Part shown: positions 9,986 to 63,753 of the stretch, piece after piece
Position numbering within the stretch: position 1 is the stretch's first letter
Layout: each line of letters begins with the position of its first letter
NCBI GenBank assembly: GCA_001804805.1
Contig: MHBH01000077.1
Span: 87,355 to 151,354, forward strand
DNA: 64,000 bases
Source of the DNA: Lentisphaerae bacterium GWF2_49_21
GTDB taxonomy: Bacteria; Verrucomicrobiota; Lentisphaeria; Victivallales; GWF2-50-93
Direction of reading: 5' to 3'
Notes under the pieces: generated by a model
What the model was told of the DNA's origin: nothing
Database searches by the model: none
Seen by the model: only the letters and a program-made list of their open reading frames with translations
Position numbers and translations under genes: made by a program

Positions 9986-9997
9986 GGTATCAGATTA

Positions 9998-10027
9998 TCG
10001 ACAGGATAACAGGATTAACAGGATAAT
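9998..10027 (+). promoter_or_regulatory. promoter module copy 1: TCGACA-N18-GATAAT, spacer = 3 x ACAGGATWA
   Basis: ACAGGATAACAGGATTAACAGGATAAT differs by 1 nt from the copy at 21497..21523. An inverted partial copy (AAAATCCTGTAATCCAGTC) lies at 10049..10067. Confidence 0.45.
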
Positions 10028-10102
10028 TATGCATAAAGGAAAATCATGAAAATCCTGTAATCCAGTCAAATAATAGATTATTAATAAAAGGAGGAATTGG
10101 AA

Positions 10103-14456: not shown

Positions 14457-14478
14457 GGCGGATTAAAATCCGCCCTAC
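14457..14478 (-). repeat. REP hairpin GTAGGGCGGA-TTTTAA-TCCGCC
   Basis: The plus strand reads GGCGGATTAAAATCCGCCCTAC. An inverted partner lies at 15351..15373 on the other side of the gene. Confidence 0.7.
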
Positions 14479-14511: not shown

Positions 14512-15354
14512 ATGAAAATTCTTGCGGTCGGAAACAGTTTCTCGGGTAATTCAACGAGATTCTTCAAGGAAATCGTAAAAAGCGCCGGCGGATGCAGGCT
14601 CGTATTCGGTCATGCGTGCATCGGCGGATGTCCTCTTGAGAAACACTACAGGCTTGCGATCAAGCATGAGCGCAACACCAGCGCTCCAGAAGGCAAGCCA
14701 TACTGGCACAATGGCAAGAAGATGAGCCTGAAATCAATGCTCAAGGCGGAGAAATGGGATTATGTGACAATCCAGCAGTACAGCATGCACAGCTTCCAGA
14801 TCGGCACATACAGGCCGTGGGGAAAACGCCTTTACAACTATATAAAGAAATATGCCCCGCAGGCGGAAATCGTCTTCCACCAGACCTGGGCGTACAGGGA
14901 GGATGACAGGGAGCTTTTCAACAAGAAATTCACTCCTGATAAAATGTACAAGGATCTGGCCAAGGCATATCAGATTATCGCTTCCGAGATCGGAATAAAG
15001 AGGATTATTCCTGTCGGCGACGCTTTCCATCTTGCGACGAATTCTCCAAAATGGAAATTCATTCCTGACACTAAATTTTTCTCCAGCAATCCCGGGTTCC
15101 CCGCCCTTCCCAAGGACAAGCACTCAATTCATGGCGGATACCACTGGCGTGACAAGGACGGGATGAAAGTGCTTGGATATGACAGCCATCATGCGAACAA
15201 AGCAGGCGAGTTCATGGGCGGCTGCGTCTGGCTCGAGTTCTTCTTCGGCAAGGATTGCCGCAAGATAAAGTTCAGACCGAAGGAAGTTCCACCCAAAGAT
15301 GCGGAGTTCCTGAAGAAGATTGCGCATAGGGTAATAATTTCCACTCAAAAGTAG
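14512..15354 (+). CDS. DUF4886-like SGNH/GDSL-type hydrolase
   Basis: 280 aa. N-terminal MKILAVGNSFS block. AGGAG ribosome-binding site upstream. Confidence 0.6.
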   Translation: MKILAVGNSFSGNSTRFFKEIVKSAGGCRLVFGHACIGGCPLEKHYRLAIKHERNTSAPEGKPYWHNGKKMSLKSMLKAEKWDYVTIQQYSMHSFQIGTYRPWGKRLYNYIKKYAPQAEIVFHQTWAYREDDRELFNKKFTPDKMYKDLAKAYQIIASEIGIKRIIPVGDAFHLATNSPKWKFIPDTKFFSSNPGFPALPKDKHSIHGGYHWRDKDGMKVLGYDSHHANKAGEFMGGCVWLEFFFGKDCRKIKFRPKEVPPKDAEFLKKIAHRVIISTQK

Positions 15355-15373
15355 GGCGGTTTTTTAAACCGCC
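15351..15373 (+). repeat. REP hairpin GTAGGGCGG-TTTTTTAAA-CCGCC; its GTAG head contains the TAG stop codon
   Basis: Stop codon at 15352-15354 lies inside the GTAG head. Confidence 0.7.
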
Positions 15374-15382
15374 AACAGAATT

Positions 15383-15404
15383 GTCGGGCTAAAGCCCAAC
15401 ATAC
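15383..15404 (-). repeat. REP hairpin GTATGTTGGGC-TTTA-GCCCGAC abutting the stop of the minus-strand AraC gene
   Basis: The minus strand reads TAA|GTATGTTGGGCTTTAGCCCGAC. There is a T-G wobble in the stem. Confidence 0.7.
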
Positions 15405-16253: not shown

Positions 16254-16333
16254 TAGTCCTATATATGGATAAGATAATCGTGTAAATTGCCTGATTCAAG
16301 ATGATGGGATATTTTCACGGAAGAAAAATCAAT

Positions 16334-16355
16334 GACGGGCTAAAGCCCATCATAC
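16334..16355 (-). repeat. REP hairpin GTATGATGGGC-TTTA-GCCCGTC
   Basis: Same architecture and the same T-G wobble as 15383..15404. It lies 15 nt upstream of the ATG at 16370. Confidence 0.65.
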
Positions 16356-18205: not shown

Positions 18206-18342
18206 GTTGGTAGTTAAGCCCGTAAGGACTGTTTCTGGGAGTAGGTACGTGCTTCAGCATGTACCATCTTAATATTCAGGATTGGGACAGGCTAAAGCCC
18301 GTCCCTACTTTAAGAACATGTCTTGCGACATTAACTACAAAC
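18206..18342. repeat. two-shell composite REP element (137 bp)
   Basis: Outer shell: GTTGGTAGTTAA+hairpin (18206-18230) and hairpin+TTAACTACAAAC (18318-18342). Inner REPIN: GTAGGTACGTGCTTCAGCATGTACC (18241-18265) and GGGACAGGCTAAAGCCCGTCCCTAC (18284-18308). Confidence 0.8.
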
Positions 18343-18390
18343 GAATTCAAATAGGCGATTTAAAAACCGCCAGACCTGGGAGGAAATACT

Positions 18391-18756
18391 ATGATCATTC
18401 GCAAATTCGAAGCTGCCGTGAAGGAGTTCGACAAGTGCCATGACGGCAAGGGTGTTCTGCTCTGCACCGAGATGCTTGCGGAGTACCAGAGGAAGGAACC
18501 TGGAGTCAAGTTTTACCATGACAATATTCTTCAGCCGGGCGACAGCATAGGAGAGCATCTGCACAAGGACGACGAGGAGGTCTATATAATTATTGAAGGC
18601 ACTGGCATCATGAAAGTCGACGGAAAAGAGGAAAGGGTCCAGTCCGGAGATGTCTGCATCACCCGCAAAGGGCACAGCCATTCGCTTGTGAACACCGGGA
18701 AGACACCGATGCATTTCCTGGTGGTGGGAGTGGTGCTGCAAAAGGCAGGATATTAG
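18391..18756 (+). CDS. cupin domain protein
   Basis: 121 aa. GEHLHKDDEEVYIIIEGTG...GHSHSLVNTG, the two cupin motifs. Confidence 0.8.
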   Translation: MIIRKFEAAVKEFDKCHDGKGVLLCTEMLAEYQRKEPGVKFYHDNILQPGDSIGEHLHKDDEEVYIIIEGTGIMKVDGKEERVQSGDVCITRKGHSHSLVNTGKTPMHFLVVGVVLQKAGY

Positions 18757-18802
18757 AAGCGGCTATAAGAATACATTGCTAACTTGCTGCAGATATATTC
18801 CT

Positions 18803-18898
18803 GTTGGAGTTCACAGCTTTAGCGTGTGCATTTTTTTATTTTTTCATCCAGAAATTTCCCGGAATTACAAAGAACACGCTAAAGCTGTGAACTCCAAC
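18803..18898. repeat. GTTGGAG-headed REPIN doublet (perfect 25-bp inverted repeat)
   Basis: GTTGGAGTTCACAGCTTTAGCGTGT at 18803-18827 and its exact reverse complement at 18874-18898. Confidence 0.8.
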
Positions 18899-19024
18899 CT
18901 AATGATTTTACTAAGCGAAATATTTTCCCTGAATATCTCAATTGCCCTGCATCCCATGGCATGCTTTATGCTCCGTGACAATTAGATTCACTATGTTTGC
19001 ACAACGAAATTTTGGAGATGGCAA

Positions 19025-19405
19025 ATGATTCTTATCTTCGAAGACAACATGGATATCGGGCTCGTTCTGAAACGCATGCTAACCCACATGTTCCATGAGA
19101 ATGCCGTAGTGACATCCAATTTCGTTGATGCGGAAAATATGGTATTGGCCGGAGAAGTTGAACTTGTTCTGAGCGACCTGAATATTGAAGGCCACAAGGA
19201 ACAGGGGCTTGACCTCATTAAGAAAATAAGGAGGATCAAACCCCATACTTCTCCGCCAATCGTCGTCTATACCGGGGTGAACTGCAATGACACCTTGTAT
19301 GCCGAGGCGGAAAGGTTCTCCGACGAGATCTTCGAGAAGAGCGAAATCTCCCTGCCTCAGCTCTGCAAGGAGATGTACCGTCTGCTGAACCTCAGAAAAC
19401 GCTGA
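19025..19405 (+). CDS. stand-alone response regulator receiver domain protein
   Basis: 126 aa. CheY-like pattern (MILIFEDN..., LVLSDLNIEG, ...K). Confidence 0.7.
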   Translation: MILIFEDNMDIGLVLKRMLTHMFHENAVVTSNFVDAENMVLAGEVELVLSDLNIEGHKEQGLDLIKKIRRIKPHTSPPIVVYTGVNCNDTLYAEAERFSDEIFEKSEISLPQLCKEMYRLLNLRKR

Positions 19406-19410
19406 ATTCC

Positions 19411-19542
19411 AACCACGAAACACACGAAATAAAACTCTCTTAACCTCCCTGTTTTTTCTTAATCACAAAATCAATTGTTAATTTTTTGCGCAGCAAAACC
19501 TAAACAATGGTATTTTTCGTGTGATTAGTGTGTTTCGTGGTT
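19411..19542. repeat. inverted repeat built from tandem CACGAAA-type units
   Basis: AACCACGAAACACACGAAAT (19411-19430) against ATTTTTCGTGTGATTAGTGTGTTTCGTGGTT (19512-19542). A 15-bp perfect core. It starts 6 nt after the stop codon. Confidence 0.7.
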
Positions 19543-19614
19543 AATTCTTATCCCTTGCATTTAAAATCATTCCTAATATATTTAAAAACAAAACCAATTA
19601 AGGAATTATATCCC

Positions 19615-20619
19615 ATGCCACGCAAAAACGTCAAGATAAACAAACCGCCGGTGCTCATCAGGCAGACCCAGAAAAGCATCCAGAAGATCGAAAAGATGCT
19701 CGACGGGACTTTCCTATCATACTGGAATTCGCCCGGAGGATCCGTCTGCCACAACGATGTGATGGCGTTCTACGAGATCCTCAAATACATGAAGACCGGG
19801 AAGAATCTCTACCTCTTCATAAAGTCCAACGGCGGAGATGGAGAGGCTTCACTGCGAATCGTGAACCTGCTCAGGAAGCATTTCAACAAGATCATCGCGA
19901 TCCTCCCTCTTGAATGCGCGTCAGCGGCAACTATGATCGCCCTCGGCGCCGACGAGGTCCAGATGGGCCCCCTCGCCTACCTCACAGCAATCGACACCTC
20001 CCTCTGCCACAGTTTGTCGCCAGTCGACAAGAACAACCAGACGGTAAGCGTCAGCCAGGACGAGCTCACCCGCGTGATCCGCCTCTGGCACGAATATAAA
20101 CAGGGAGCCGGCGAAAATCCTTACAAATCGCTCTATCCGCACATACATCCCCTGGTTTTCGGGGCGATTGACAGGGCGAGTTCGCTTTCAATCAAGCTCT
20201 GCAAGGAAATTCTCTCGTACCACATAAAGGACGCCAAGGTTTCCGACAAGATAAGCCAGCACCTCAATTCGAACTATCCTTCGCACGAATATCCGATCAC
20301 CCTCCGCGAAGCCCAGAGGATCGGGCTGAAGGTCAAGGCGATAGATCCCGCCCTCAACGATCTGCTGATCGAACTGAACTCATATTATTCTGAGATGGGA
20401 CAGCGGGCCCTGACCGACTACGACGAGGAGAACTACCACAACAACGAGATCCTGAACATCCTCGAAGGCGACCGCATCCAGATCTACTACCAGAACGACA
20501 AGGACTGGCACTACAGGAAAGAGGAAAGGCGCTGGGTGCCTCTGAACGACATAAGCCTCTGGTACAGGCAGGTAGTCTCAGGGAAGAAGATCGTCTCTTC
20601 GAAGTTCCATATCAGATAA
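19615..20619 (+). CDS. ClpP-fold serine protease (SDH/SppA-like family)
   Basis: Start at the ATG at 19615. IKSNGGDGEASLRIVNLL...ECASAATMIALGADEV resembles serine dehydrogenase proteinase family proteins. Confidence 0.65.
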   Translation: MPRKNVKINKPPVLIRQTQKSIQKIEKMLDGTFLSYWNSPGGSVCHNDVMAFYEILKYMKTGKNLYLFIKSNGGDGEASLRIVNLLRKHFNKIIAILPLECASAATMIALGADEVQMGPLAYLTAIDTSLCHSLSPVDKNNQTVSVSQDELTRVIRLWHEYKQGAGENPYKSLYPHIHPLVFGAIDRASSLSIKLCKEILSYHIKDAKVSDKISQHLNSNYPSHEYPITLREAQRIGLKVKAIDPALNDLLIELNSYYSEMGQRALTDYDEENYHNNEILNILEGDRIQIYYQNDKDWHYRKEERRWVPLNDISLWYRQVVSGKKIVSSKFHIR

Positions 20620-20645
20620 ATTTCCGGACGGAAATTTATATTTTG
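20617..20645 (+). terminator. stop-codon-embedded palindrome TAAATTTCCG-GA-CGGAAATTTA followed by TATTTTG
   Basis: 10-bp stem whose first three bases are the TAA stop codon; a T-rich tail follows. Confidence 0.5.
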
Positions 20646-20649
20646 ATTT

Positions 20650-20787
20650 GCTTGTAGTAGTGCAATTTATTGCACATTCTAGAAGTAGGGACGGGCTTTA
20701 GCCTGTCCCACTCTTATAATCAAGATGGTACATGCTGAAGCACGTACCTACTTGGAATAACGGCGTATAAATTCGCCTACTACAAAC
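20650..20787. repeat. two-shell composite REP element (138 bp)
   Basis: Outer shell: GCTTGTAGTAG+TGCAATTTATTGCA and GGCGTATAAATTCGCC+TACTACAAAC. Inner REPIN at 20685-20751, same as the 18241 unit in opposite orientation with a diverged spacer. Confidence 0.8.
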
Positions 20788-20811
20788 ATGATCTGCGTGA
20801 AACTTGAACTC

Positions 20812-20879
20812 GTTGGAGTACAAACTTTAGTTTGTCTTCAGGATCAAAAAAATACGCAAGCTAAAGCTTGTACTCCAAC
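20812..20879. repeat. GTTGGAG-headed REPIN doublet with non-identical stems
   Basis: GTTGGAGTACAAACTTTAGTTTGTC (20812-20836) and CAAGCTAAAGCTTGTACTCCAAC (20857-20879). Confidence 0.75.
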
Positions 20880-20883
20880 CTAA

Positions 20884-21477
20884 TCAATTGGATCGGCGCA
20901 GGTCTTCTTGTAATTTTTTAACGGCCTTATACTCCTCCGAATCTGATTCCGTGCCGGCGACTACCGCCTTCACTATCGCCGAAATCTTCTCCTGCTGCTC
21001 CGGATTTATCCCGGCTTTTCCAAGTATTTCAGAAACTCCATCGATATATTTTTTTCCGCTGGCGGAAAAAAATATTATGACAAGAGAAGTCTTCACGACA
21101 CACGGATCACACTTGGTTCCGCCAAGGACATTGTCCGCCAGCTTGCACGCCTTTTCAAGATCCTTCTGGGCTTTGTCATCCAGCTTGAACTGACTGGAAA
21201 GAAGCGCCTTGACCTTCTCGATTACAGGTGATGCTGATTCGTCCTTTGAAGCCCTTCCGAGGCACTGGTCGGCGAACTTGCACCATTTGGCGCAGCCAAG
21301 ATCTATTCTGGGATTCTTGATCTCATTGCTGCATTTTTTGCAGATAAGGAAAGGTTCATCTTTCCAGAATTCCATCTCATTGCCGCAGTGCGGACATTTC
21401 AGCGTGAATATGTCCTCCGGCTTCCAGAATCTCATGTCCTGCCCCGGACACCTTGGCCTTGCGTTGTCGGATTTCAT
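20884..21477 (-). CDS. zinc-ribbon domain hypothetical protein
   Basis: 197 aa. N-terminal CPHCG...CKKC plus further Cys pairs. I recognise no family. Confidence 0.55.
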   Translation of the reverse strand: MKSDNARPRCPGQDMRFWKPEDIFTLKCPHCGNEMEFWKDEPFLICKKCSNEIKNPRIDLGCAKWCKFADQCLGRASKDESASPVIEKVKALLSSQFKLDDKAQKDLEKACKLADNVLGGTKCDPCVVKTSLVIIFFSASGKKYIDGVSEILGKAGINPEQQEKISAIVKAVVAGTESDSEEYKAVKKLQEDLRRSN

Positions 21478-21493
21478 TTATCAAAACCTTTTT

Positions 21494-21523
21494 TTGACAG
21501 GATAACAGGATTTACAGGATAAT
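21494..21523 (+). promoter_or_regulatory. promoter module copy 2: TTGACA-N18-GATAAT, spacer = 3 x ACAGGATWA; candidate promoter of the C1 operon
   Basis: Perfect -35 at 21494-21499 and GATAAT at 21518-21523. The next plus-strand gene starts at 21985, implying a leader of about 450 nt. Confidence 0.5.
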
Positions 21524-21600
21524 AATATTGTATGCCTTAGCATGCGGAAATCAAGCTTAATATTTTCATGTAACCGCCGGACTCGCAACGTTCCTATTTC

Positions 21601-21740
21601 GCTTGCAGTAGTCCGCCTAGGCGGATTTGCGCGTTAAGTAGGTACGTGCTTTAGCATGTACCATCTTAGTTTCCAGGAATGGGACAGGCTAAAGCCCGTC
21701 CCTACTTTAAAAAAACGCGCAAACATGCGCTACTACGAAC
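21601..21740. repeat. two-shell composite REP element (140 bp) with an extra 10-bp stem
   Basis: Outer shell: GCTTGCAGTAG+TCCGCCTAGGCGGA and GCGCAAACATGCGC+TACTACGAAC. Extra stem TTTGCGCGTT/AACGCGCAAA. Inner REPIN at 21638-21705. Confidence 0.8.
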
Positions 21741-21771
21741 GGAATCCTTTATTTTGCCAAGTCAGATGCTT

Positions 21772-21795
21772 TTGCCGGCGAGACGCCAGCGCTCC
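21772..21795 (+). repeat. left copy of a 24-bp perfect inverted repeat bracketing the homocysteine methyltransferase gene
   Basis: TTGCCGGCGAGACGCCAGCGCTCC. Its exact reverse complement is at 22925-22948. It contains a local GGCG-AGA-CGCC hairpin. Confidence 0.8.
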
Positions 21796-21805
21796 CTTAT
21801 TGATA

Positions 21806-21856
21806 ATAATGCCAATATGCCTTGCCATTTCTCAGGGCAAAGCATATTGGCATTAT
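21806..21856 (+). other. long hairpin (about 20 bp) in the putative operon leader
   Basis: ATAATGCCAATATGC-C-TTGCC[atttctcag]GGCAA-A-GCATATTGGCATTAT. No U-tract follows. Confidence 0.6.
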
Positions 21857-21984
21857 CCTGCAATATACTTGAAGTTTGCTATAAAGCTGCAAAACCCGGC
21901 TTTTATTTATTCGGGTGTATAATTATTGTTTGGCGTTTACTTGAGCGATGCAATATTTTACCAAAATTATTTTAGGAGGCTGAT

Positions 21985-22881
21985 ATGGGCAGGGGAAAAA
22001 TTGTTGACGCGCTGAAGAGCGGAAAAATCCTGGTTTCCGACGGGGCATGGGGGACTTTCCTTCAGAAAAAAGGACTTAAGCCGGGCGAGTGTCCGGAACT
22101 CTGGTGCATAGACCGTCCGGACGATGTCTATGATGTCGCCAAGAACTACATCGATGCCGGTGCGGACATGGTCGAATCCGACAGTTTCGGCGGAACCTGC
22201 TTCAAGCTCGAGCACTACCACCTCGCGGAAAGGACCGCCGAGATCAACATTGCCTCCGCCAAAATCTCCCGCAAGGCCGCCGGTGACAATAAATGGGTCA
22301 TAGCGTCAATTGGACCGACAGGAAAAATGCTTGTCATGGGGGATGTCACCGAAGACGATCTCTACAAGGCCTTCAAGGAACAGGCTGTCGCGCTGGAAAA
22401 AGGTGGAGCCGACGCCATCTGCATCGAGACAATGAGCGCGACCGACGAGGCTGCAATAGCCATCAAGGCCGTCAAGGAAAACACAAAATGCGAAGTCATC
22501 TGCACGTTCACCTTCGAACTGACCGCGCACGGCGGATACAGGACCATGATGGGCGTCACTCCTGCCGATGCCGCAAAGGCCGCGCTTGAAGCAGGCGCCG
22601 ACATAATCGGTCCGAACTGCGGGAACGGCATTGAACGAATGATCGAGATCGTCAGGGAAATAAAGAAAGCCGCTCCTAAGTCATTTATCCTCGTCCATGC
22701 GAACGCCGGACTTCCGAAAAACGTCAACGGCGTTGACATATTCCCGGAGACGCCAGAAGAAATGGCGAAGAGGGTTCCTGAACTTATCAAAGCCGGCGCA
22801 AACATCATCGGCGGCTGCTGCGGAACGACACCGGCACATATAAAGGCGATAAAGCAGGCGGTGGAAACCTGCAAGAAGTAA
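21985..22881 (+). CDS. stand-alone homocysteine S-methyltransferase domain protein (MetH N-terminal module type)
   Basis: 298 aa. LVSDGAWGT, IGPTG, ETMSA, GPNCG, HANAGLP and GGCCGTTPAHIK align with the MetH Hcy-binding domain, including the Zn-ligand cysteines. Confidence 0.85.
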   Translation: MGRGKIVDALKSGKILVSDGAWGTFLQKKGLKPGECPELWCIDRPDDVYDVAKNYIDAGADMVESDSFGGTCFKLEHYHLAERTAEINIASAKISRKAAGDNKWVIASIGPTGKMLVMGDVTEDDLYKAFKEQAVALEKGGADAICIETMSATDEAAIAIKAVKENTKCEVICTFTFELTAHGGYRTMMGVTPADAAKAALEAGADIIGPNCGNGIERMIEIVREIKKAAPKSFILVHANAGLPKNVNGVDIFPETPEEMAKRVPELIKAGANIIGGCCGTTPAHIKAIKQAVETCKK

Positions 22882-22882
22882 T

Positions 22883-22917
22883 TTGATACTTGATACTCGT
22901 AACTTGAAATTGGAAAT
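22883..22917 (+). repeat. 5 x 7-mer tandem array (TTGATAC TTGATAC TCGTAAC TTGAAAT TGGAAAT)
   Basis: Begins 2 nt after the stop codon at 22879-22881. Confidence 0.65.
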
Positions 22918-22924
22918 TATTATC

Positions 22925-22948
22925 GGAGCGCTGGCGTCTCGCCGGCAA
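22925..22948 (-). repeat. right copy of the 24-bp inverted repeat (GGAGCGCTGGCGTCTCGCCGGCAA)
   Basis: Exact reverse complement of 21772-21795. Confidence 0.8.
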
Positions 22949-22970
22949 TTGATTTAGAAATTCGAAATTA

Positions 22971-22995
22971 GTTGGAGTTCACAGCTTTAGCGTGT
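22971..22995 (+). repeat. single GTTGGAG-headed REP
   Basis: GTTGGAGTTCACAGCTTTAGCGTGT, identical to 18803-18827. Confidence 0.75.
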
Positions 22996-23038
22996 TCTTT
23001 AATTATCGATAAATAATATAATTGGAGGAATTGTTAAT

Positions 23039-24106
23039 ATGAAAACCAAATTCACCGCCACAGGCATTGGCAGTATGCCATTTCCGGATCCCGACTACGC
23101 AGTAAAGGTATCCCTCTCGAAGATGTGCAACGCCCCGATCTGGCCCCAGCTCCCGAAGCTCGGCCTGCATGAACAGATGGAGATCCAGTATTCCGAAGGC
23201 ATGCCCTGCACAGTGATCGATGAGGAGAAGCACAGGATGTATTTCGACACGTCAAAGGATTATTCCGAATCTTTTGCGCAACTCTACGAAGGCTACATTG
23301 CCGCATCCGAGGAAGGTGGAACCAGGGATTTCTCAAAGATGGCGATAAGCCCGGATTTCTCAAAGGGGATATACGCGCTCGAAAAGGCGCTCCAGGCAAA
23401 AGGCGGAGCAAAACTCCCGTTCGTGAAAGTGCAGACGACCGGTCCGTGCAGTTTCGCCCTGACACTCGTCGACGAGAACAAGCGCGCCATCTACTACAAC
23501 GAAGAGTTCCGCGACATGATCCTCAAGGCTCTTGCCATGAAATCCCGCTGGCAGATCCAGATGTTCCAGCCCTATGCTGAAAAGATCATCTGCTTCATCG
23601 ACGAACCCATCCTCTCGGCTTTCGGAAGCTCGACATATGTATCGGTCAAACGCGATGACGTTGTCATACTCGTAAACGAAGTCTCGGAAGCCATCCATGC
23701 GGAAAAAGCCCTTTCCGGAGTCCATTGCTGTGGAAATACAGAATGGAGCATACTCATCGACGCCGGCGTCGATATCGTAAACTTCGACGCATTCGGTTTC
23801 GGCGAGACGATCGCAATGTATCCGGAAGCTGTAAAGATGCATCTCGAACGCGGTGGAATCCTCGCATGGGGCGTTGTGCCTACATCGACCGCGATAAGGG
23901 ATCAGACCGTCGAGAAGCTTGCCGCGCATCTCGAGAAAATGATGGACAATCTGGCTTCAAAGGGAATCAACAAAAAGCTTATCGCGGAACAGGCGATGAT
24001 CACACCGTCATGCGGAACTGGCTCGATGGAACCGGCTGATGCGGAAAAAGTCTTCGAGACATTGTTCCAGCTCTCGAACACAATGAAAGCTAAGTATGGT
24101 TTTTAA
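23039..24106 (+). CDS. core-MetE-like (cobalamin-independent methionine synthase catalytic-domain family) zinc methyltransferase; candidate corrinoid-protein-dependent methionine synthase
   Basis: 355 aa. TATGIGSMP (compare MetE TTTIGSFP), IDEPIL, GVHCCGN and ITPSCGTG (MetE-type His/Cys/Cys zinc ligands). No N-terminal MetE domain. Confidence 0.65.
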   Translation: MKTKFTATGIGSMPFPDPDYAVKVSLSKMCNAPIWPQLPKLGLHEQMEIQYSEGMPCTVIDEEKHRMYFDTSKDYSESFAQLYEGYIAASEEGGTRDFSKMAISPDFSKGIYALEKALQAKGGAKLPFVKVQTTGPCSFALTLVDENKRAIYYNEEFRDMILKALAMKSRWQIQMFQPYAEKIICFIDEPILSAFGSSTYVSVKRDDVVILVNEVSEAIHAEKALSGVHCCGNTEWSILIDAGVDIVNFDAFGFGETIAMYPEAVKMHLERGGILAWGVVPTSTAIRDQTVEKLAAHLEKMMDNLASKGINKKLIAEQAMITPSCGTGSMEPADAEKVFETLFQLSNTMKAKYGF

Positions 24107-24262
24107 GTAGGTACGGGCTTTAGCCTGTACCATTGGTACACCCTAAAGGGCATACCTAAGAAGTAGGGACGGCCTTTCTGTGTCCGGCGTAGCCTTTTGG
24201 CGAAGTCGGAAGGCTGTCCCAATCAAGAACGTAGAATGGTACAGGCTAAAGCCCGTACCTAC
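24107..24262. repeat. compound REPIN filling the whole intergenic gap (4 REPs)
   Basis: GTAGGTACGGGCTTTAGCCTGTACC at 24107-24131, directly after the TAA stop. Its perfect inverse is at 24238-24262. Inside are a degenerate REP (24135-24160) and GTAGGGACGGCC[37-nt insert]GGCTGTCCC (24163-24220). Confidence 0.85.
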
Positions 24263-24278
24263 TTTAAGAAGATAAACT

Positions 24279-25058
24279 ATGAAAATCGCAATATCAGGGA
24301 AAGGGGGGGTGGGCAAATCGACACTTGCCGCCGCCCTCGCCCTGCTCATGGCGGAGAAGAAGAGAAAAGTGCTTGCGCTAGACACGGATCCGGCTGCGAA
24401 TCTCGCAAACGCCATCGGCATTCCTGCAGACATCAGGAACAAGATTATCCCAATTTCCAAACAAAAATCCCTGATCGAAGAGCGCACCGGCGCAAAAGTG
24501 AAACAATACGGACAGATGTTCAAGCTGAATCCTGAAGTCTCTGACATCGCCGACAAGTACGCCGTCAATTACAATGGAGTCTCCCTCATCGTGGTTGGCG
24601 CGATCGAAAAAGGCGGGAGCGGCTGTGCGTGTCCGGAGAGCGTCCTGATCAGGGCACTTGTGACAAACCTCGTGCTCCACAGGAACGAGGCGCTGATAAT
24701 GGACATGGAGGCCGGTGTCGAACATCTCGGCAGGGCGACCGCCAGCGGTGTCGACGGCATGATCATAGTCGTGGAGCCCGGACAGCGTTCCATCGACTGC
24801 GCAAAGGCGATAATCGGGATGGCCCATGACATCGGACTGAAGAAGCTGCATATCGTCGCAAACAGGGTGACCTGCCATGAAGACGAAACTTTTGTCAAGA
24901 ATTCTTTTCCTGACCAGGAACTGCTTGGATCTATCCCATTCTCGGAGAAGGTCCGCAAGTCCGATATGAACGAGGTTTCCGTCCTTGAGAAGATAGAACC
25001 GGAGACAAGAAAGGCTTTTGAATCAATTCTAAATAATGTTGAGAGGCTTTTAAAATGA
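24279..25058 (+). CDS. cooC: CODH/ACS nickel-insertion ATPase (CooC/AcsF family)
   Basis: 259 aa. P-loop GKGGVGKST; CooC CxC motif (GSGCACPES). Confidence 0.85.
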   Translation: MKIAISGKGGVGKSTLAAALALLMAEKKRKVLALDTDPAANLANAIGIPADIRNKIIPISKQKSLIEERTGAKVKQYGQMFKLNPEVSDIADKYAVNYNGVSLIVVGAIEKGGSGCACPESVLIRALVTNLVLHRNEALIMDMEAGVEHLGRATASGVDGMIIVVEPGQRSIDCAKAIIGMAHDIGLKKLHIVANRVTCHEDETFVKNSFPDQELLGSIPFSEKVRKSDMNEVSVLEKIEPETRKAFESILNNVERLLK

Positions 25059-25267
25059 AAACGGATGTCGTGCGTGAAAAATATGTCCGTCTCATGACGG
25101 AAATCGAGGATCTCGAGGACAAGATCGAGAAAGCTGAGAAAAAAGTTTCAAAGAAGGCCGGAAAGAAGGCTGAAAAGGAGCTTGAGCTGATGAAAGAACA
25201 GCTTGCGGCGAAAAGGAACGAGCTCGCAAGGATCAGCGACGGCTGCGGAAAACCGCATGCGCATTAG
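25055..25267 (+). CDS. small coiled-coil protein with a C-terminal Cys/His tail (hypothetical)
   Basis: 70 aa. ATGA overlap with cooC (translational coupling). Lys/Glu-rich heptad-like sequence ending in DGCGKPHAH. Confidence 0.45.
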   Translation: MKTDVVREKYVRLMTEIEDLEDKIEKAEKKVSKKAGKKAEKELELMKEQLAAKRNELARISDGCGKPHAH

Positions 25268-25269
25268 AA

Positions 25270-25439
25270 GTAGGGACGGCCTTTCTGTGTCCGGCGTAGC
25301 CTTTTGGCGAAGTCGGAAGGCTGTCCCAAGCAAGAAAGCAGAATGGTACAGGCTAAAGCCCGTACCTAAGAAGTAGGGACGGCCTTTAGGCTGTCCCAAG
25401 TAAGAATGTAGAATGGTACAGGCTAAAGCCCGTACCTAC
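25270..25439. repeat. two tandem REPIN doublets
   Basis: 25270-25327 is identical to 24163-24220 (the insert-bearing REP). Paired REP at 25345-25366. GTAGGGACGGCCTTTAGGCTGTCCC at 25373-25397 is the insert-free version. GGTACAGGCTAAAGCCCGTACCTAC at 25415-25439. Confidence 0.85.
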
Positions 25440-31902: not shown

Positions 31903-33240
31903 ATGGCATTGACAGGATTACAGATACAGAAACTTCTACCGAAGACGAACTGCAAGGAATGCGGTTCGAACACGTGTCTCGCGTTTGCGATGAAGCTTGC
32001 AGCGAAAAAAGCGGAACTTTCACAATGCCCGTACGCGTCAGAAGAGGCGAAGAAAGTACTCGGTGCGGCAAGTGAACCACCGGTGAAATCAATCGTACTC
32101 GGACCCGACAAGAAACTCAAACTCGGTGAGGAGACTGTCCTTTACAGGCACGAAAAGACTTTTGTCAACCAGACCGCCCTCGCTGTCAACATAAACGACA
32201 CCGACAAGCCGGAGTCGATTGAAAAGACGCTCCGCGCGGTCGGCAGCTACCTGCTCGAGCGTGTCGGCGAAAAGCTCATCGTCGACATGGTCTGCATAAC
32301 CTGCAAGAGCGGAGATCCTGCGAAGTTCGCAAACATCTGCTCCAAGGCGTATGAGATCGCAAAGCGCCCGATCGTGATGCGCAGTTCCAGCGTCCAGGAA
32401 ATCTCAGCCGCGGCGAAGGCGGTGAAAGGTTCGAACAGCGTTATCGCATCGGCGAATCCAAAGACAGCCGATGAACTGAAAAAAATCGCCGAGGAGAACG
32501 GTCATGCGCTCGCATTGACAGCTCCTAACCTCGATGAGCTTTCAGCGCTGACTTCAAGGATCAAGGAGTCCGGCTTCAACAACATCATCCTCAATTTCGA
32601 GACGTTCTCGCTTTCAGAGCAGTTCCAGGTGAATTCAATCGCACGCAGGGCGGCGCTGAAGGACTCGTTCAAGCCTCTCGGATATCCTTCGATCAAATTC
32701 ATCGATGGAGGAGAAATGTTCGACATCGCCGGCGAGGCGATAAACGAGATCACAAAATACGGGGGGATCTGCGTGCTTCCATACTTCGATTCGGCAATGC
32801 TGGTTTCCCTGATGACGCTCCGTCTGAACATCTATACGGATCCTCAGAAGCCAATCCAGGTTGAGCCGAAAGTATATTCTATCGGCGAACCGGACAAGAA
32901 CTCCCCGGTATTCGTCACGACAAACTTCTCGCTCACATATTTTATTGTATCGGGCGAGATCGAGAACAGCGGGACAAACGCGTGGCTCGTGGTTCCAGAG
33001 TGCGAAGGCATGAGCGTCCTGACCGCCTGGGCTGCCGGTAAGTTCTCCGGCGCGTCGATCGCGAAGTTCATAAAGGGGATCGGGCTCGAGGAGCAGGTCG
33101 CCACGCGTCAGATCATAATCCCCGGCTACGTCGCGCAGATCAGCGGTGAACTCGAGGAAAGCCTTCCGGGATGGAAGGTCGTCGTAGGGCCGCAGGAAGC
33201 CGCCGACATTGAAAGCTTCGTGAAGGCGAGGATTAAGTAA
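31903..33240 (+). CDS. acsC: corrinoid iron-sulfur protein large subunit
   Basis: 445 aa. N-terminal 4Fe-4S motif CKECGSNTCLAF...C. AAGGAGG ribosome-binding site. Confidence 0.9.
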   Translation: MALTGLQIQKLLPKTNCKECGSNTCLAFAMKLAAKKAELSQCPYASEEAKKVLGAASEPPVKSIVLGPDKKLKLGEETVLYRHEKTFVNQTALAVNINDTDKPESIEKTLRAVGSYLLERVGEKLIVDMVCITCKSGDPAKFANICSKAYEIAKRPIVMRSSSVQEISAAAKAVKGSNSVIASANPKTADELKKIAEENGHALALTAPNLDELSALTSRIKESGFNNIILNFETFSLSEQFQVNSIARRAALKDSFKPLGYPSIKFIDGGEMFDIAGEAINEITKYGGICVLPYFDSAMLVSLMTLRLNIYTDPQKPIQVEPKVYSIGEPDKNSPVFVTTNFSLTYFIVSGEIENSGTNAWLVVPECEGMSVLTAWAAGKFSGASIAKFIKGIGLEEQVATRQIIIPGYVAQISGELEESLPGWKVVVGPQEAADIESFVKARIK

Positions 33241-33262
33241 TAAATTTTGCAGGCAAAATTTA
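33241..33262 (+). promoter_or_regulatory. 22-nt palindrome TAAATTTTGC-AG-GCAAAATTTA filling the acsC/RACo intergenic gap
   Basis: It starts right after the TAA stop and ends 1 nt before the ATG at 33264. No Shine-Dalgarno sequence is visible. Same outer arms as the palindrome at 20617. Confidence 0.5.
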
Positions 33263-33263
33263 T

Positions 33264-35195: not shown

Positions 35196-35198
35196 TAA

Positions 35199-35228
35199 CG
35201 GACTGGATAACGGAATTTACAGGATTAT
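35199..35228 (+). promoter_or_regulatory. promoter module copy 3 (diverged): CGGACT-N18-GATTAT
   Basis: ACTGGATAACGGAATTTACAGGATTAT aligns with the 27-mers at 10001 and 21497. The -35 is weak. Confidence 0.3.
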
Positions 35229-35314
35229 TTTATGGTTATAATTCCCACAAAGAAAAAGTAATCTCTAGTCTGTGAAAGTCTGTGGCAAAATAATCTCAAA
35301 GGATTCTATATCTG

Positions 35315-35914
35315 ATGTCCAAGACCGAAGGGCAGAACGAGGCGATCAGGATTGCGGCTGCGAAACTCGCAGGGGCGGATATGTCCAGGCGTGCGGACAA
35401 CCTCGGGTTCAGCTTCATGGACAAGGGAACAATCCTAATACGTGCCTTCGGGGCCGACTACACGGTTGATTTGAAAAGTTTCGATGTCAGGAATAAAAAG
35501 GCAGGTCAGCCGGTGAGACCCGACCTGAAGATCATAATTCTCCATTATCTGCTCTTCGATAATAAATTTTCCGAAACCGGAAAATTTATAACTTTCAGGG
35601 ATCTGCCTGGCGGACAGTTCTATCTTGAGCCTTACAAATCCAGGAGTGTCAACATCTTGTCCAGCGTGATAAAGGACGACGTTGCCCGATTGAAGAAGAA
35701 TCTTGGCCGTCTTGACTGGAAGGATAAGACTCCCGGCGACATCGGGGCGGAAATCCACGTTATTGGGAAAATCAAAGTGAACCTGATCTATTACAAGAGC
35801 GACGAAGAAATGCCGGCGACCGCAGATTTCGTATATGATTCGTCCATAAAGAACGTATTCAGCACGGAAGATGTGGTTGTAATGGCCTCATTGATATGCA
35901 GGATGCTGTTGTAA
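35315..35914 (+). CDS. hypothetical protein, DUF3786-like (a family I recall as co-occurring with acs clusters)
   Basis: 199-aa ORF, last gene of the cluster. The family assignment is from memory of its general character, not from a motif. Confidence 0.45.
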   Translation: MSKTEGQNEAIRIAAAKLAGADMSRRADNLGFSFMDKGTILIRAFGADYTVDLKSFDVRNKKAGQPVRPDLKIIILHYLLFDNKFSETGKFITFRDLPGGQFYLEPYKSRSVNILSSVIKDDVARLKKNLGRLDWKDKTPGDIGAEIHVIGKIKVNLIYYKSDEEMPATADFVYDSSIKNVFSTEDVVVMASLICRMLL

Positions 35915-42033: not shown

Positions 42034-43770
42034 CTACGGATTCTTCGACAGGATCTTCCGAATCTTCTTCATGTCGAATTTTTCCGAGCGGTCATAGTTG
42101 TAGATGCCATTCTGTTCCTGCTCGACATCAGTCAACTGGGTATAGCAGTATCCCTTGATATGTTTGTGGCTCAGCAGTGCATTGACCTGTCCTTCCAGAC
42201 GGTTGTAGACTTCTTCTAGAGATTTCGGAGCATCTCCATATCCCCATGTATTGTCCGCAAAGGCTGCGCCCACAACCCATTTGATCCCACCGAATTCATC
42301 TACAAAGTAAGGCTGTCCCTGATACTTCACTTCCTTTTCCGGATGGTTTCTCCAGACGCCTTTTTCTCTGTCAGGAGTAAGCTGAGCCTTGAGCTTTTCA
42401 GGATTCTGCTCATAGTTGTGGACTGTCCAGAGATCCGTTTTCACATGGACATAGCCGCTTGCCTCGTTGACAGGTCTTGTCGGATCAAGAGATTTTGTAA
42501 TATCATAAAGGTCCGCGTGGAATCTTGAGTGTTGCACCCCGTCTCCAGTATCCCATGTCTCATTAAGAGGTGTCCATGCTATTATGGAAGGATGGTTCAG
42601 GTCACGGGCTACGACTTCAGCCCATTCCGTGATGAAATTCCTGGCGGCGACAGGATCCTTCACATCGGTACCCCAACTCGGGAACTCGCCCCAGGTAAGA
42701 TAACCAAGCTTGTCCGCCCAGTAATGGAATCTTTCCTCGAATACTTTCTGATGGAGCCTTGCACCATTGAATCCGGCCTTCATGGAAAGTTCAATGTCCT
42801 TTTTCAAGGCTGAATCGCTTGGCGCGGTCCAGATACCGTCAGGATAGAATCCCTGGTCGAGGACGAGTCGCAGATAATAAGGTTTGTTGTTGAGATAGAG
42901 AGTGTCCCCCTCGATATGCACCTTCCTTATTCCAGCATAGCTTTTCACGGAATCCACCACTTTCCCTCCGTCAACAACTTCAAACAGGATGCTGTAGAGG
43001 AATGGACTTTCCGGAGACCAGACCTTCGGATTGCCGACTGCGAGTTGGACTGGCACTCCGCTTTGTGCGGGAAATTCACCCTTTGCTGCAATTTTTTCTC
43101 CATCTTTCACAGCAATCCTCACCTTTAAATTTCTTTTCATACCGCGGAAGAGCGGTGTGAAAAGAAATTTATTACCGTCAAGATCGGGGAGAATTCTACA
43201 AGACTGGAGGGAGAACTCCGATACTGCTTCTAGCCAGACGGTCTGCCAGATCCCGGTAGTACGGGTGTAATGACAACCAGCCGACTTGAATCCGAAGGAT
43301 TGTTTTCCGCCTGGCTGCTTCCCGTGGCGCGTGTCGTCGGAAACATGTAGGACCAGTGAATGCTTCTTGCCAGCTTCCACATAATCCGAAATGTCATAGT
43401 CAAAAGAGGAACTTCCTCCGAAATGCCTGCCGACGTACCTGCCATCAACGAAGATTTCAGCTATATAGTCTACGGCACCGAAATGGAGAATGACTTTACT
43501 TCCCCGCCAATCCTTTGGAATCTGGATGTCTTTCTGATACCACATCATCTCGATGAAGTCCTTGTACCCGACGCCGGAGAGTTCGCTTTCCGGGCAGAAT
43601 GGAACGGTGATCTTACCAGCAAAACCTTTGCTGTCCTTGAATCCTCTTTCGGCTCCCGACTTGCCGAAATCAAAAGCATAGGTCCACTGTCCGTTAAGGT
43701 TGATCCAGCTTTCCCTTTCAAACTGGGGCTTGGGATGTTCAGGACGGGGAATCGTTGAATTCTTAGCCAT
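42034..43770 (-). CDS. glycoside hydrolase family 2 (beta-galactosidase/beta-glucuronidase-like)
   Basis: 578 aa. Sugar-binding domain, Ig-like domain and TIM barrel order; NGARLHQ and WGEFPSWG motifs. Confidence 0.85.
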   Translation of the reverse strand: MAKNSTIPRPEHPKPQFERESWINLNGQWTYAFDFGKSGAERGFKDSKGFAGKITVPFCPESELSGVGYKDFIEMMWYQKDIQIPKDWRGSKVILHFGAVDYIAEIFVDGRYVGRHFGGSSSFDYDISDYVEAGKKHSLVLHVSDDTRHGKQPGGKQSFGFKSAGCHYTRTTGIWQTVWLEAVSEFSLQSCRILPDLDGNKFLFTPLFRGMKRNLKVRIAVKDGEKIAAKGEFPAQSGVPVQLAVGNPKVWSPESPFLYSILFEVVDGGKVVDSVKSYAGIRKVHIEGDTLYLNNKPYYLRLVLDQGFYPDGIWTAPSDSALKKDIELSMKAGFNGARLHQKVFEERFHYWADKLGYLTWGEFPSWGTDVKDPVAARNFITEWAEVVARDLNHPSIIAWTPLNETWDTGDGVQHSRFHADLYDITKSLDPTRPVNEASGYVHVKTDLWTVHNYEQNPEKLKAQLTPDREKGVWRNHPEKEVKYQGQPYFVDEFGGIKWVVGAAFADNTWGYGDAPKSLEEVYNRLEGQVNALLSHKHIKGYCYTQLTDVEQEQNGIYNYDRSEKFDMKKIRKILSKNP

Positions 43771-43966: not shown

Positions 43967-44034
43967 GTAGATACGCCCTTCAGGGTGTATCATTCTTAAA
44001 TATTAAGATGGTACATGCTAAAGCACGTACCTAC
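43967..44034. repeat. REPIN doublet upstream of araC
   Basis: GTAGATACGCCCTTCAGGGTGTATC (43967-43991) and GGTACATGCTAAAGCACGTACCTAC (44010-44034). Confidence 0.8.
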
Positions 44035-44867: not shown

Positions 44868-44991
44868 GTAGGTACGTGCTTTCCTGTCCTGAGCTTATCG
44901 AAGGGAGAATGTACCATCTTTTCTCAATAATGGTACACCCTGAAGGGCGTACCTACTTTTAAGAACATCCCTTACGGGATTAACTATAAAC
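44868..44991. repeat. REPIN doublet (left unit carries a loop insert) plus a right-hand outer-shell arm only
   Basis: GTAGGTACGTGC[tttcctgtcctgagcttatcgaagggagaat]GTACC (44868-44915); GGTACACCCTGAAGGGCGTACCTAC (44932-44956); ATCCCTTACGGGAT+TAACTATAAAC (44967-44991). Confidence 0.75.
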
Positions 44992-46124: not shown

Positions 46125-46192
46125 GTTTGTAGTTAAGCCATTTTTGGCTGTGAATATAAACACGAAGAAACACGCAAGAATGCGTTAACTAC
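46125..46192. repeat. empty outer-shell element (no inner REPIN)
   Basis: GTTTGTAGTTAA+GCCA-TTTT-TGGC ... ACGCA-AGAA-TGCGT+TAACTAC. Confidence 0.7.
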
Positions 46193-46277
46193 CAGCAAAT
46201 AAACATACGATATTTTGACTGCAGCAGTTATTAACAGAGGCAATTTCAAAATTGCCTCTTTTGAGCTGATTGCTAAA

Positions 46278-46346
46278 GTAGGAGTTCACAGCTTTAGATG
46301 TGCATCCAATTGATGATAAGACACAACTGAAGTTGTGAACTCCAAC
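46278..46346. repeat. GT[A/T]GGAG-headed REPIN doublet
   Basis: GTAGGAGTTCACAGCTTTAGATGTG (46278-46302) and ACACAACTGAAGTTGTGAACTCCAAC (46321-46346). Confidence 0.75.
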
Positions 46347-49649: not shown

Positions 49650-49674
49650 GTTTGTAGTTAAGCTCGCAAGAGCT
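49650..49674 (+). repeat. single outer-shell-type REP GTTTGTAGTTA+AGCTC-GCAA-GAGCT
   Basis: Same 11-nt head as at 46125 and 18206. GNRA-type loop. Confidence 0.7.
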
Positions 49675-49717
49675 GTTCTCCTCCCACTCCCTCTTTTTTT
49701 TATTATTTGATTTCATC

Positions 49718-49983: not shown

Positions 49984-50051
49984 GCCATTATCAAAATTAG
50001 CTTCACAAACAAGTTGAGAATGCGATATTATATGATAAATTTTTTATTCCC

Positions 50052-53853: not shown

Positions 53854-53928
53854 GACCGGCCCCCCTTTTTAACAGGTTCCAGAATCTATTTTTCAAACCT
53901 AATATATCCTATATACCAGAAAAGGAAA

Positions 53929-53954
53929 ATAAATTTTCCCGCAGGAAAATTTAT
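53929..53954 (-). terminator. stop-codon-embedded palindrome ATAAATTTTCC-NNNN-GGAAAATTTAT after pmm
   Basis: 11-bp stem that includes the TAA stop codon (53951-53953, minus strand). T-rich sequence follows on the minus strand. Confidence 0.5.
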
Positions 53955-62945: not shown

Positions 62946-63087
62946 GCTGTAGCCGCGTCACTCTGATGACGCGTCTAGTATTGAAGAACACGCCAACAGA
63001 GTGGCGTGGCTACAGCAGAGCAATTATAGAAAAACAAATCATTAGAAACAGAAGGGACGCGTCAGCAGAGTGACGCGGCTACAGTGG
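62946..63087 (+). repeat. REP cluster (3 REPs), left direct repeat of the RAYT cassette
   Basis: GTAGCCGCGTCACTCTGATGACGCGTC (62949-62975, forward), GTAGCCACGCCACTCTGTTGGCGTG (62989-63013, reverse), GTAGCCGCGTCACTCTGCTGACGCGTC (63056-63082, reverse). Confidence 0.85.
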
Positions 63088-63610: not shown

Positions 63611-63753
63611 GCTGTAGCCGCGTCACTCTGCTGACGCGTCTTGTATTGAAGAACACGCCAACAGAGTGGCGTGGCTACAGCAGAGCAATTATAGAAAAAA
63701 CAAATCATTAGAAACAGAAAGGACGCGTCAGCAGAGTGACGCGGCTACAGCGG
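63611..63753 (+). repeat. REP cluster (3 REPs), right direct repeat of the RAYT cassette
   Basis: REPs at 63614-63640 (forward), 63654-63678 (reverse) and 63722-63748 (reverse). Confidence 0.85.

Follow-up and report, generated by a model that had tools for sequence, protein, structure and literature searches.

What are the GTAG-headed hairpins that recur between genes in a 64-kb stretch of Lentisphaerae DNA (contig MHBH01000077.1, positions 87,355 to 151,354; the window hereafter), and is it their sequence or their folded shape that is maintained? Here, the hairpins are described as one family of repetitive extragenic palindromes (REPs), called family A. Very probably, family A is a REP family of the Lentisphaerae/Victivallales lineage, consisting of non-autonomous mobile DNA that is copied and homogenized, most likely by RAYT-A, a REP-associated tyrosine transposase (RAYT) whose gene is bracketed by family A units in three relatives. 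The hairpins had been noticed in a first-pass annotation made from the letters of the window, and its claims are revisited where the results bear on them.

Family A units in the window

The consensus family A unit is GTAG-G[T/G]AC-G-NNN-TTYA-NNN-T-GT[A/C]CC, 25 nt with a 9-bp stem, preceded by AA and trailed by ATYYTT. Scanning the window with the 25-nt pattern GTAGGKACGNNNTTYANNNTGTMCC gave 12 exact matches, or 13 when one mismatch was allowed; 100 shuffles gave no match. A covariance model trained on 15 family A copies from the window scored 15 intact units at 38.7-55.4 bits on the GTAG-first strand, versus 9-11 bits for the opposite strand at the same sites. With default filters it also recovered three units carrying large loop insertions (24163-24220, 25270-25327 and 44868-44915), so that the family has 18 members in the window, arranged as nine inverted pairs with the GTAG ends facing outward. 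They are listed below; numbers with the prefix L designate loci from the scans of other genomes described in the next section.

18241-18265, plus strand: class GGTAC-G-TGC, loop TTCA; left half of doublet 18241-18308
18284-18308, minus strand: class GGGAC-G-GGC, loop TTTA; right half of this heterotypic doublet, 18-nt spacer
20685-20709, plus strand: class GGGAC-G-GGC
20727-20751, minus strand: class GGTAC-G-TGC, loop TTCA; 17-nt spacer
21638-21662, plus strand: class GGTAC-G-TGC
21681-21705, minus strand: class GGGAC-G-GGC; 18-nt spacer
24107-24131, plus strand: class GGTAC-G-GGC; the orthologous unit in CAZDNQ (L010) is of class CCC
24135-24159, minus strand: degenerate head (TTAG), stem GGTATGCCC/GGGTGTACC with T·G at pair 5; 38.7 bits; 3 nt from 24107-24131
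24163-24220, plus strand: class GGGAC-G-GCC, with a 33-nt module between loop TTT and A; 36.1 bits
24238-24262, minus strand: class GGTAC-G-GGC; pairs with 24163-24220
25270-25327, plus strand: class GGGAC-G-GCC, with a 33-nt loop insertion as in 24163-24220
25345-25369, minus strand: class GGTAC-G-GGC, head TTAG
25373-25397, plus strand: class GGGAC-G-GCC; the orthologous unit in L010 and L027 is of class GGTAC-G-CCC
25415-25439, minus strand: class GGTAC-G-GGC
43967-43991, plus strand: class GATAC-G-CCC, outer pair A:T
44010-44034, minus strand: class GGTAC-G-TGC
44868-44915, plus strand: class GGTAC-G-TGC, with a 23-nt loop insertion and one uncompensated change (TGC opposite GAA); 26.8 bits
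44932-44956, minus strand: class GGTAC-G-CCC

The first-pass annotation had spoken of about 20 hairpins fitting the pattern, headed by GTAG and paired as inverted doublets with 17-18-nt spacers. The family is real at the places it gave, with the smaller counts stated above. The GTAG head is present in 16 of the 18 units, the two others having TTAG, and the doublets are genuine with spacers of 16-18 nt except for one of 3 nt at 24132-24134. Across the intact copies, a standard pair is found at each stem position, both sides have changed at four of the nine pairs, and the pair fourth from the loop is always G·T. All the stem variants that had been reported are present, namely TGC/GCA, GGC/GCC, GCC/GGC and CCC/GGG next to the loop and GGTAC, GGGAC and GATAC in the outer stem. 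The statement that every variant is compensated holds for the intact copies, which are fully paired, and fails at the loop-inserted unit 44868-44915.

The G·T pair, the folded strand and the genomic context

To place the window copies among those of other genomes, species-representative genomes were scanned with a doublet pattern in which the variable stem positions were all left free. At least 75 loci were found, and the same pattern gave 114 additional loci in metagenomes. Among the matches listed, most doublet loci came from the metagenome-assembled genome (MAG) Lentisphaerae bacterium GWF2_50_93 and three other Victivallales MAGs. In syntenic regions they and the window are 77-86% identical, and the genomes thus belong to related species and not to the same organism. 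The covariance model matched 213 times in 603 kb of the related genomes. Furthermore, a loose scan for GTAG followed by a hairpin of any sequence (9 bp/4 nt, seven or more pairs) yielded, once duplicates had been removed by context, 331 nonredundant family A units of this lineage.

At the pair fourth from the loop, 316 of the 331 units (95.5%) have G·T, 10 have A:T and five have T·T. The 3′ T of this pair is kept in all 331, although the scan left the position free. The A:T and T·T exceptions are low-copy: the copies in which G has become A, and the stem perfect, stay few, and several of them have a new T·T mismatch at the adjacent pair. The G·T had been called invariant, which is true of the intact window copies and slightly too strong for the lineage. 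It looks like the reflection of a constraint at the amplification step, and is no absolute invariant.

The wobble distinguishes the two strands, as the complementary strand has an A·C mismatch at the same position. The predicted DNA hairpin is more stable on the GTAG-first strand (-6.9 and -8.7 kcal/mol) than on the complement (-4.9 and -6.3 kcal/mol), and a whole doublet is predicted to fold as a single strand into a long imperfect hairpin (-14.7 and -16.8 kcal/mol), the commonest doublet joining two different classes. RAYTs are known to act strand-specifically on the folded single-stranded REP and to depend on irregularities of its stem (PMC8266576), and by analogy a folded form of one strand is likely the substrate in family A as well.

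There are 87 family A doublets, with spacers of 13-31 nt (mode 18) and conserved spacer ends CCATCTTA...AAGAATGG. The heterotypic doublet, composed of two different classes, is the commonest type (36 of 87). The family is extragenic, with only nine of 174 clusters overlapping a long open reading frame (ORF). Among the classifiable clusters, 79 lie between codirectional genes, 27 between convergent genes and seven between divergent genes, a bias toward gene 3′ ends. A 25-nt palindromic unit in high copy number, mainly between genes and headed by GTAG, is a GTAG-type REP; an inverted pair of such units around a short spacer is a REP doublet forming hairpins (REPIN), and the family A doublets, which may be called REPINs or BIME-like 'HH dimers', are mostly of this arrangement with GTAG outside.

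The bias toward gene 3′ ends could also be read as a sign that the hairpins are kept for a function in RNA, such as 3′ end protection, attenuation or termination, or as a small RNA, the wobble then being a G·U selected in the transcript. The G·T is a legitimate pair in the transcript of one strand only, a T-rich tail follows a few family A units, and it is general knowledge that Escherichia coli REPs stabilize upstream mRNA, a topic discussed in PMC3733652. However, we consider this explanation improbable. Heterotypic doublets face the flanking genes equally in both orientations (6 vs. 6 and 9 vs. 7), and any transcript meets one unit per orientation from each doublet. A terminator scan gave 14 terminator-like matches where 8.8±3.4 were expected, with no true U-run at the family A hairpins, and an Rfam search of the window returned one tRNA only and no family match for the hairpins. 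Moreover, the same sequences flank a dedicated transposase gene. The even orientation, the lack of a U-run, the background-level terminator scan and the Rfam result together do not favor selection on the transcript as the source of the strand asymmetry. Counting orientation relative to transcription had been proposed in the first-pass annotation as a check; the count shows no bias, which favors recognition of single-stranded DNA by a transposase over a role in RNA. Accordingly, of the suggested selection on a strand-specific folded form, as single-stranded DNA or as RNA, the DNA version is likely and the RNA version found no support. A secondary effect of family A on mRNA ends may exist. Intrinsic (Rho-independent) terminators were considered separately and rejected in view of the same terminator counts, the even orientation and the tails of family A, which are ATCTTAAT or ACTTTAAG and not a T-run.

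Stem classes and turnover at orthologous sites

The first-pass annotation had suggested a covariance model and a test of covariation; a model and a covariation score with shuffled controls gave a positive outcome. Among the best 150 covariance-model matches (75 distinct sequences), every stem position has a standard pair and both partners have changed at four of the nine pairs, with a covariation score of 0.323; the corresponding value is 0.068 for shuffles and does not exceed 0.057 with the partners slid. The covariation is real but shallow, consisting of few events that were multiplied by copying. Eleven master 25-mers cover 279 of the 331 units, and the masters reduce to seven stem classes: GGTAC with TGC, GGC, CCC, GCC or TCC, and GGGAC with GGC or GCC. 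There are rare compensated classes too, e.g., GATAC/GTATC and GGAAC/GTTCC, for a total of about 7-9. Stem variation is thus discrete, with no continuum, and identical classes are present in the window, GWF2_50_93, GWF2_49_21 and other MAGs (five or more related genomes), and their proportions are broadly alike wherever the samples suffice. The first-pass annotation had set conserved shape against recent copying and had named a collapse into a few clonal subfamilies as evidence against its reading. Given these few discrete classes, such a collapse is partly what is seen, and the opposition itself was a false one.

It is nevertheless supported that hairpin shape, rather than stem sequence, is conserved in family A. 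Every amplified class is fully paired save for the same G·T, and uncompensated intermediates are rare singletons among the 331 units. Outer T or G at pair 3 is each combined with inner GGC and GCC, and TGC/TCC likewise with GGC/GCC; the presence of all four combinations of outer and inner variants implies recurrent compensated change or recombination. These three observations together argue for selection on shape.

Turnover was observed directly at orthologous sites. The doublet 18241-18308 has an orthologue in GWF2_50_93 (L029) that is identical at 66 of 68 positions, spacer included, while the adjacent genes are 78-81% identical. The doublet 43967-44034 is missing at the orthologous site in GWF2_50_93, and no target-site duplication accompanies this presence/absence difference. 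The doublet 44868-44956 is common to both, with the loop insertion in the window copy only and the orthologue intact. The forward units at 24107 and 25373 differ in class from those of relatives by four compensated and no uncompensated substitutions. Finally, a 103-nt doublet with a loop insertion has two copies in the window, 97% identical to each other (24159-24261; 25270-25327 plus 25345-25369), on the two sides of the gene 24279-25058. This is the behavior of a mobile, homogenized repeat whose classes are exchanged only for other allowed ones, and the doublet appears to replicate as one unit.

Alternatively, there may be no selection on shape, the variants being a few clonal subfamilies of a recent expansion that owe their compensated look to whichever founders were amplified. 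The small number of masters and classes and the rarity of single-step intermediates would be expected in that case, and the control on pairs changed on both sides is marginal (4 vs. 3.0, a value reached in 21 of 500 shuffles). This is very unlikely, however, as an account of founders that are all perfectly paired bar the same G·T, with no amplified class having an uncompensated stem. The classes also persist, with no change of sequence, between genomes that have diverged to 77-86% gene identity, all four variant combinations are found, and the doublet orthologous to 18241-18308 has hardly changed beside diverged genes. Miniature inverted-repeat transposable elements and derivatives of IS200/IS605 insertion sequences were rejected on other grounds: there is no target duplication at 43967-44034, the RAYT of the window scores below the IS200 cutoff (23.9 vs. 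55), and RAYT-like ORFs are not multicopy in the loci searched (next section).

The probable transposase of family A

A single RAYT-like ORF was found in the 64 kb plus 563 kb of loci. This ORF, at 63114-63593 in the window, is a genuine RAYT (Pfam Y1_Tnp, E 1.8e-7; NCBIfam REP_Tyr_transpos NF047646, 85.1 bits, cutoff 80). The protein is also encoded on NCBI contig DNKO01000089.1 (GCA_003488745.1) and in two metagenome assemblies, the locus DNA being identical where checked. Its flanks carry family B, a GTAGCC head followed by a GC-rich stem (heads GTAGCCGCGTCAC.../GTAGCCACGCCAC...), in which repeat GTAGCCGCGTCACTCTGMTGACGCG is paired with GTAGCCACGCCACTCTGTTGGCGTG, in direct copies of about 140 nt at 62949-63082 and 63614-63748. 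All its orthologues and paralogues (46-88% identity) have doublets with GTAGCC and a GC-rich stem at their flanks, the stems differing completely between lineages. As candidates for the family A enzyme, the window-RAYT relatives P0006-P0009, P0066 and P0121 were rejected because of these GTAGCC-type flanks.

The search for a family A transposase by tblastn and a profile hidden Markov model found no cognate RAYT in the first 75 loci; the genes between family A clusters are ordinary ones, encoding a deacetylase-like protein, a BirA-like protein and a secreted protein. A metagenome pattern linking MPDHxH and NP motifs to a downstream family A unit had no match; RAYT-A has MPNHVH and is longer. 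A profile search of the metagenome doublet loci gave three more distant RAYTs. One of them, RAYT-A, is the product of L166:6579-7181 (GWF2_49_21 A2X48_02340), 200 aa long, with 85.7 bits on NF047646 (cutoff 80). It is identical to the protein in L123, and the shorter annotated GWF2_49_21 form matches it at 99% over 69% of the length. It has the motifs MPNHVH (HVH) and RYIMNNP (Y..NNP), and an N-terminal extension, 'RRKLPHW...YFVTFRL'.

In L166, three tandem forward family A units and one reverse unit lie upstream of the RAYT-A gene, ending 10 nt before the ATG; downstream, a forward unit begins directly after the stop codon and is followed by its reverse partner. Two orthologues at 81% identity (L199-L203; L211) are likewise bracketed by family A doublets, those of L211 including GTAGGGACGGGCTTCAGCCTGTCCC and GTAGGTACGCCCTTCAGGGTGTACC, both of classes present in the window. 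A RAYT gene flanked by its own REPs, a REPtron, is therefore found for family A in three relatives and not in the window. RAYT-A is 27% identical to the window RAYT and belongs to a separate clade. A sequence search of PDB with RAYT-A gave no match.

The other RAYTs found have repeats of their own, GTAGCGCAGACA... for the RAYT of L153 and GTAACACAGGCATCTTGCCTGTG for that of L151, while P0157 (GWF2_50_93; L198) and P0155 (L206/L207) are bracketed by a GTATG/GTAGGRCGG family (family G, below). P0157, P0155 and P0172 were considered as RAYT-A candidates in GWF2_50_93 and rejected, since they serve other families. In this lineage there is one REP family per RAYT. The first-pass annotation was right that a RAYT handles these GTAG-headed REPs, and wrong about which one. 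That the window RAYT mobilizes family A is scarcely credible: it is a bona fide RAYT in the same genome as family A copies, and the GTAG head is common to families A and B, but a different family flanks it, this GTAGCC association is kept in its relatives down to 46% identity, and the enzymes that family A does bracket are so distant from it in a lineage where each RAYT has one REP family.

How RAYT-A may act on family A, and what weighs against it

We propose that RAYT-A, a protein of about 200 aa presumably of the single-strand-specific HUH/Y1 type, most likely copies and homogenizes family A units. By analogy with E. coli TnpA-REP, it would recognize the GTAG-first strand folded as a hairpin, which it would then bind and cleave. 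The recognition determinants would be the GTAG head, the stem geometry, the G·T irregularity and, above all, the invariant 3′ T. With such determinants, stem changes would be tolerated only when compensated, and variants that repair the wobble would not spread.

Several points weigh against this proposal. There is no RAYT-A gene in the window or in the 10 kb past its right end, and GWF2_50_93, the richest source of copies, gave only a RAYT of another family, neither this genome nor that of the window having been searched whole. The high identity at orthologous sites could be explained by gene conversion or reinsertion and not by purifying selection. As for the wobble, its 5′ G is the most often altered position among the rare variants, and the G·T could be an inherited trait of a young, fast-copying family and not a selected determinant.

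We also entertain two speculative readings. In one, a single G·T wobble with the invariant 3′ T is what discriminates between strands and between families in the RAYT-A clade; it would then stand in for the two-base bulge of enterobacterial REPs, within the short format of the 'perfect' group 3 REPs. In the other, the 33-nt module found in some loops is itself a tiny mobile element targeting REP loops, a parasite of a parasite.

Comparison with known REP/RAYT systems

Family A resembles the E. coli REP/BIME (bacterial interspersed mosaic element) system with its group 2 RAYT, TnpA-REP (Messing 2012 PMC3479197; Corneloup 2021 PMC8266576). GTAG stands 5′ of an imperfect palindrome, and the stem irregularity is conserved and present on one strand only; TnpA-REP depends on GTAG as well as on the conserved mismatches of the stem, and is inactive once these have been repaired (PMC8266576). 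T-type units are paired with G-type units as y is with z1/z2 in E. coli, the transposase gene is flanked by its own REPs, and the REPs lie mostly at gene 3′ ends. In contrast, the family A unit is shorter (9-bp stem and 25 nt vs. 29-37 nt) and has a single G·T wobble instead of the two-base AA/GC bulge, and RAYT-A differs from TnpA-REP in its length of about 200 aa, its N-terminal extension and the lack of a sequence-level match to solved structures.

The REPINs of Pseudomonas fluorescens and their group 3 RAYTs (Bertels and Rainey 2011 PMC3116915; PMC5581495) are similar in other respects. They are short inverted REPs with a spacer, copied as a unit; each RAYT has one REP family, several RAYT/REP systems coexist in a genome, and the repeats persist vertically for long, with the same sequence classes across related species. 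However, the palindromes of group 3 REPs are as a rule perfect and each REPIN has two like halves, whereas the commonest family A doublet is heterotypic and G·T is kept in every family A class.

There are parallels also with the GTAG-tagged REP families in the survey of Di Nocera et al. (2013; PMC3733652), among them those of Opitutus terrae of the PVC superphylum. As in family A, there is a GTAG terminus, HH dimers predominate, homo- and heterodimers and subsets of stem variants occur, and dimers are nested in other palindromic repeats. The survey makes no mention of a Lentisphaerae/Victivallales family and lists neither the family A sequence nor its G·T nor its RAYT clade. Family A is a new example of the classical REP/REPIN type of repeat and no new kind, the combination of short format and conserved irregularity being a variation within the known scheme.

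These findings extend REP/RAYT systems to Lentisphaerota, in a lineage that is unusually rich in them: the 64-kb window alone has at least five GTAG-type families, and the RAYTs of the relatives fall into at least four lineages, each of them paired with a repeat of its own. With one family strictly assigned to each enzyme, the lineage provides a handy natural panel for how RAYTs distinguish REPs, the more so given the discrete compensated stem classes, the nearly fixed G·T and the heterotypic doublets. The RAYT-A clade has so far been unstudied and has no solved relative by PDB sequence search. For annotation, proximity to a REP does not by itself make a RAYT its partner; what counts is the repeat at the flanks of the gene.

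Loop insertions and other repeat families

The 33-nt module CTGTGTCC-NNNN-TAGC-N6-GCGA-NNNN-GGA always occupies one precise point of the GCTTTAGC loop, between TTT and A; its window copies are at 24178-24210 and 25285-25317. It is also present in family A loops of L016, L099, L091, L123, L155, L159 and L199 and in family D loops of L044 and L163, i.e., in five family A classes and family D across several genomes; in L199-L201, the unit directly after the RAYT-A stop codon carries it. The module lengthens the hairpin and has a compensated stem of its own, and it may be a loop-targeting mini-element. A second, shorter insertion, CCTGTCCTGAGCTTRTCGAAGGGA, occupies the same loop position at 44882-44906 in the window and in L192, L035 and L075. 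The two insertions have the common frame CTGT..TCC...CGAAG..GGA.

Three further families are found in the window. Family C has TTYGTAGT(A/Y)(G/A) ahead of a hairpin whose stem varies in discrete, compensated forms, and often makes an outer inverted pair around a family A doublet; its head lies at most 40 nt upstream of 26% of family A units, compared with 2.3% at random. The family C stem at 44958-44988 differs from the orthologous site in GWF2_50_93 in compensated form. Family D, GT(T/A)GGAGTTCACAGCTTTAGCGTGT, forms inverted pairs, has the GCTTTAGC loop region in common with family A, and has a proposed stem with several G·T. Family G is GTAGGGCGG...CCGCC and GTATG(T/A)TGGGCTTTAGCCCG(A/T)CA. 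The GTATG-headed hairpins 15382-15404 and 16333-16355, assigned to the main family as singles in the first-pass annotation, belong instead to family G, which has its own RAYT; they reach only 20-22 bits on the family A covariance model, and 15382-15404 is half of a doublet with 15351-15373. The copies in the window are:

Family C: 18208-18236 (plus), 18312-18340 (minus), 20652-20680 (plus), 20757-20785 (minus), 21604-21634 (plus), 21710-21738 (minus), 44958-44988 (minus), 46127-46194 (doublet), 49652-49680 (plus)
Family D: 18803-18830 (plus), 18871-18898 (minus), 20857-20882 (minus), 22971-22998 (plus), 46278-46305 (plus), 46319-46346 (minus)
Family G: 14457-14478 (minus), 15351-15373 (plus), 15382-15404 (minus), 16333-16355 (minus)

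The same outer frame, GTAGGGAC....TT.A....GTCCC, was observed in unrelated phyla: L054 (Ktedonobacterales), L062 (Chloroflexia), L064 (Sangeribacter), L095, L189 and L124. The doublets there have different inner stems and no G·T, e.g., GTAGGGACGCGATTAATCGCGTCCC. Either the shared frame arose by convergence, or a RAYT specificity for GTAGGGAC is widespread.

Other sequence features of the window

A perfect AT-rich palindrome, ATAAATTTTCC-N2-8-GGAAAATTTAT, recurs intergenically, with one copy (35562-35589) inside an ORF, and looks like the operator of a dimeric regulator. Its copies are:

AT-rich palindrome: 20616-20639, 21046-21075, 33240-33263, 35562-35589, 50033-50066, 53925-53958, 61887-61911

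A 36-nt direct repeat, TTGACAGGATAACAGGATTTACAGGATAAT, is present in three copies (9995-10030, 21491-21526 and 35196-35231). The copy at 21494-21523 is the best sigma-70-like match in its region (11 of 12 positions), and the repeat may be a shared promoter module. Finally, a hairpin with a 20-bp stem, TAAATTTCTTTTCATACCGC...GCGGTGTGAAAAGAAATTTA, lies at 43126-43171 within the long minus-strand ORF 42034-43770.

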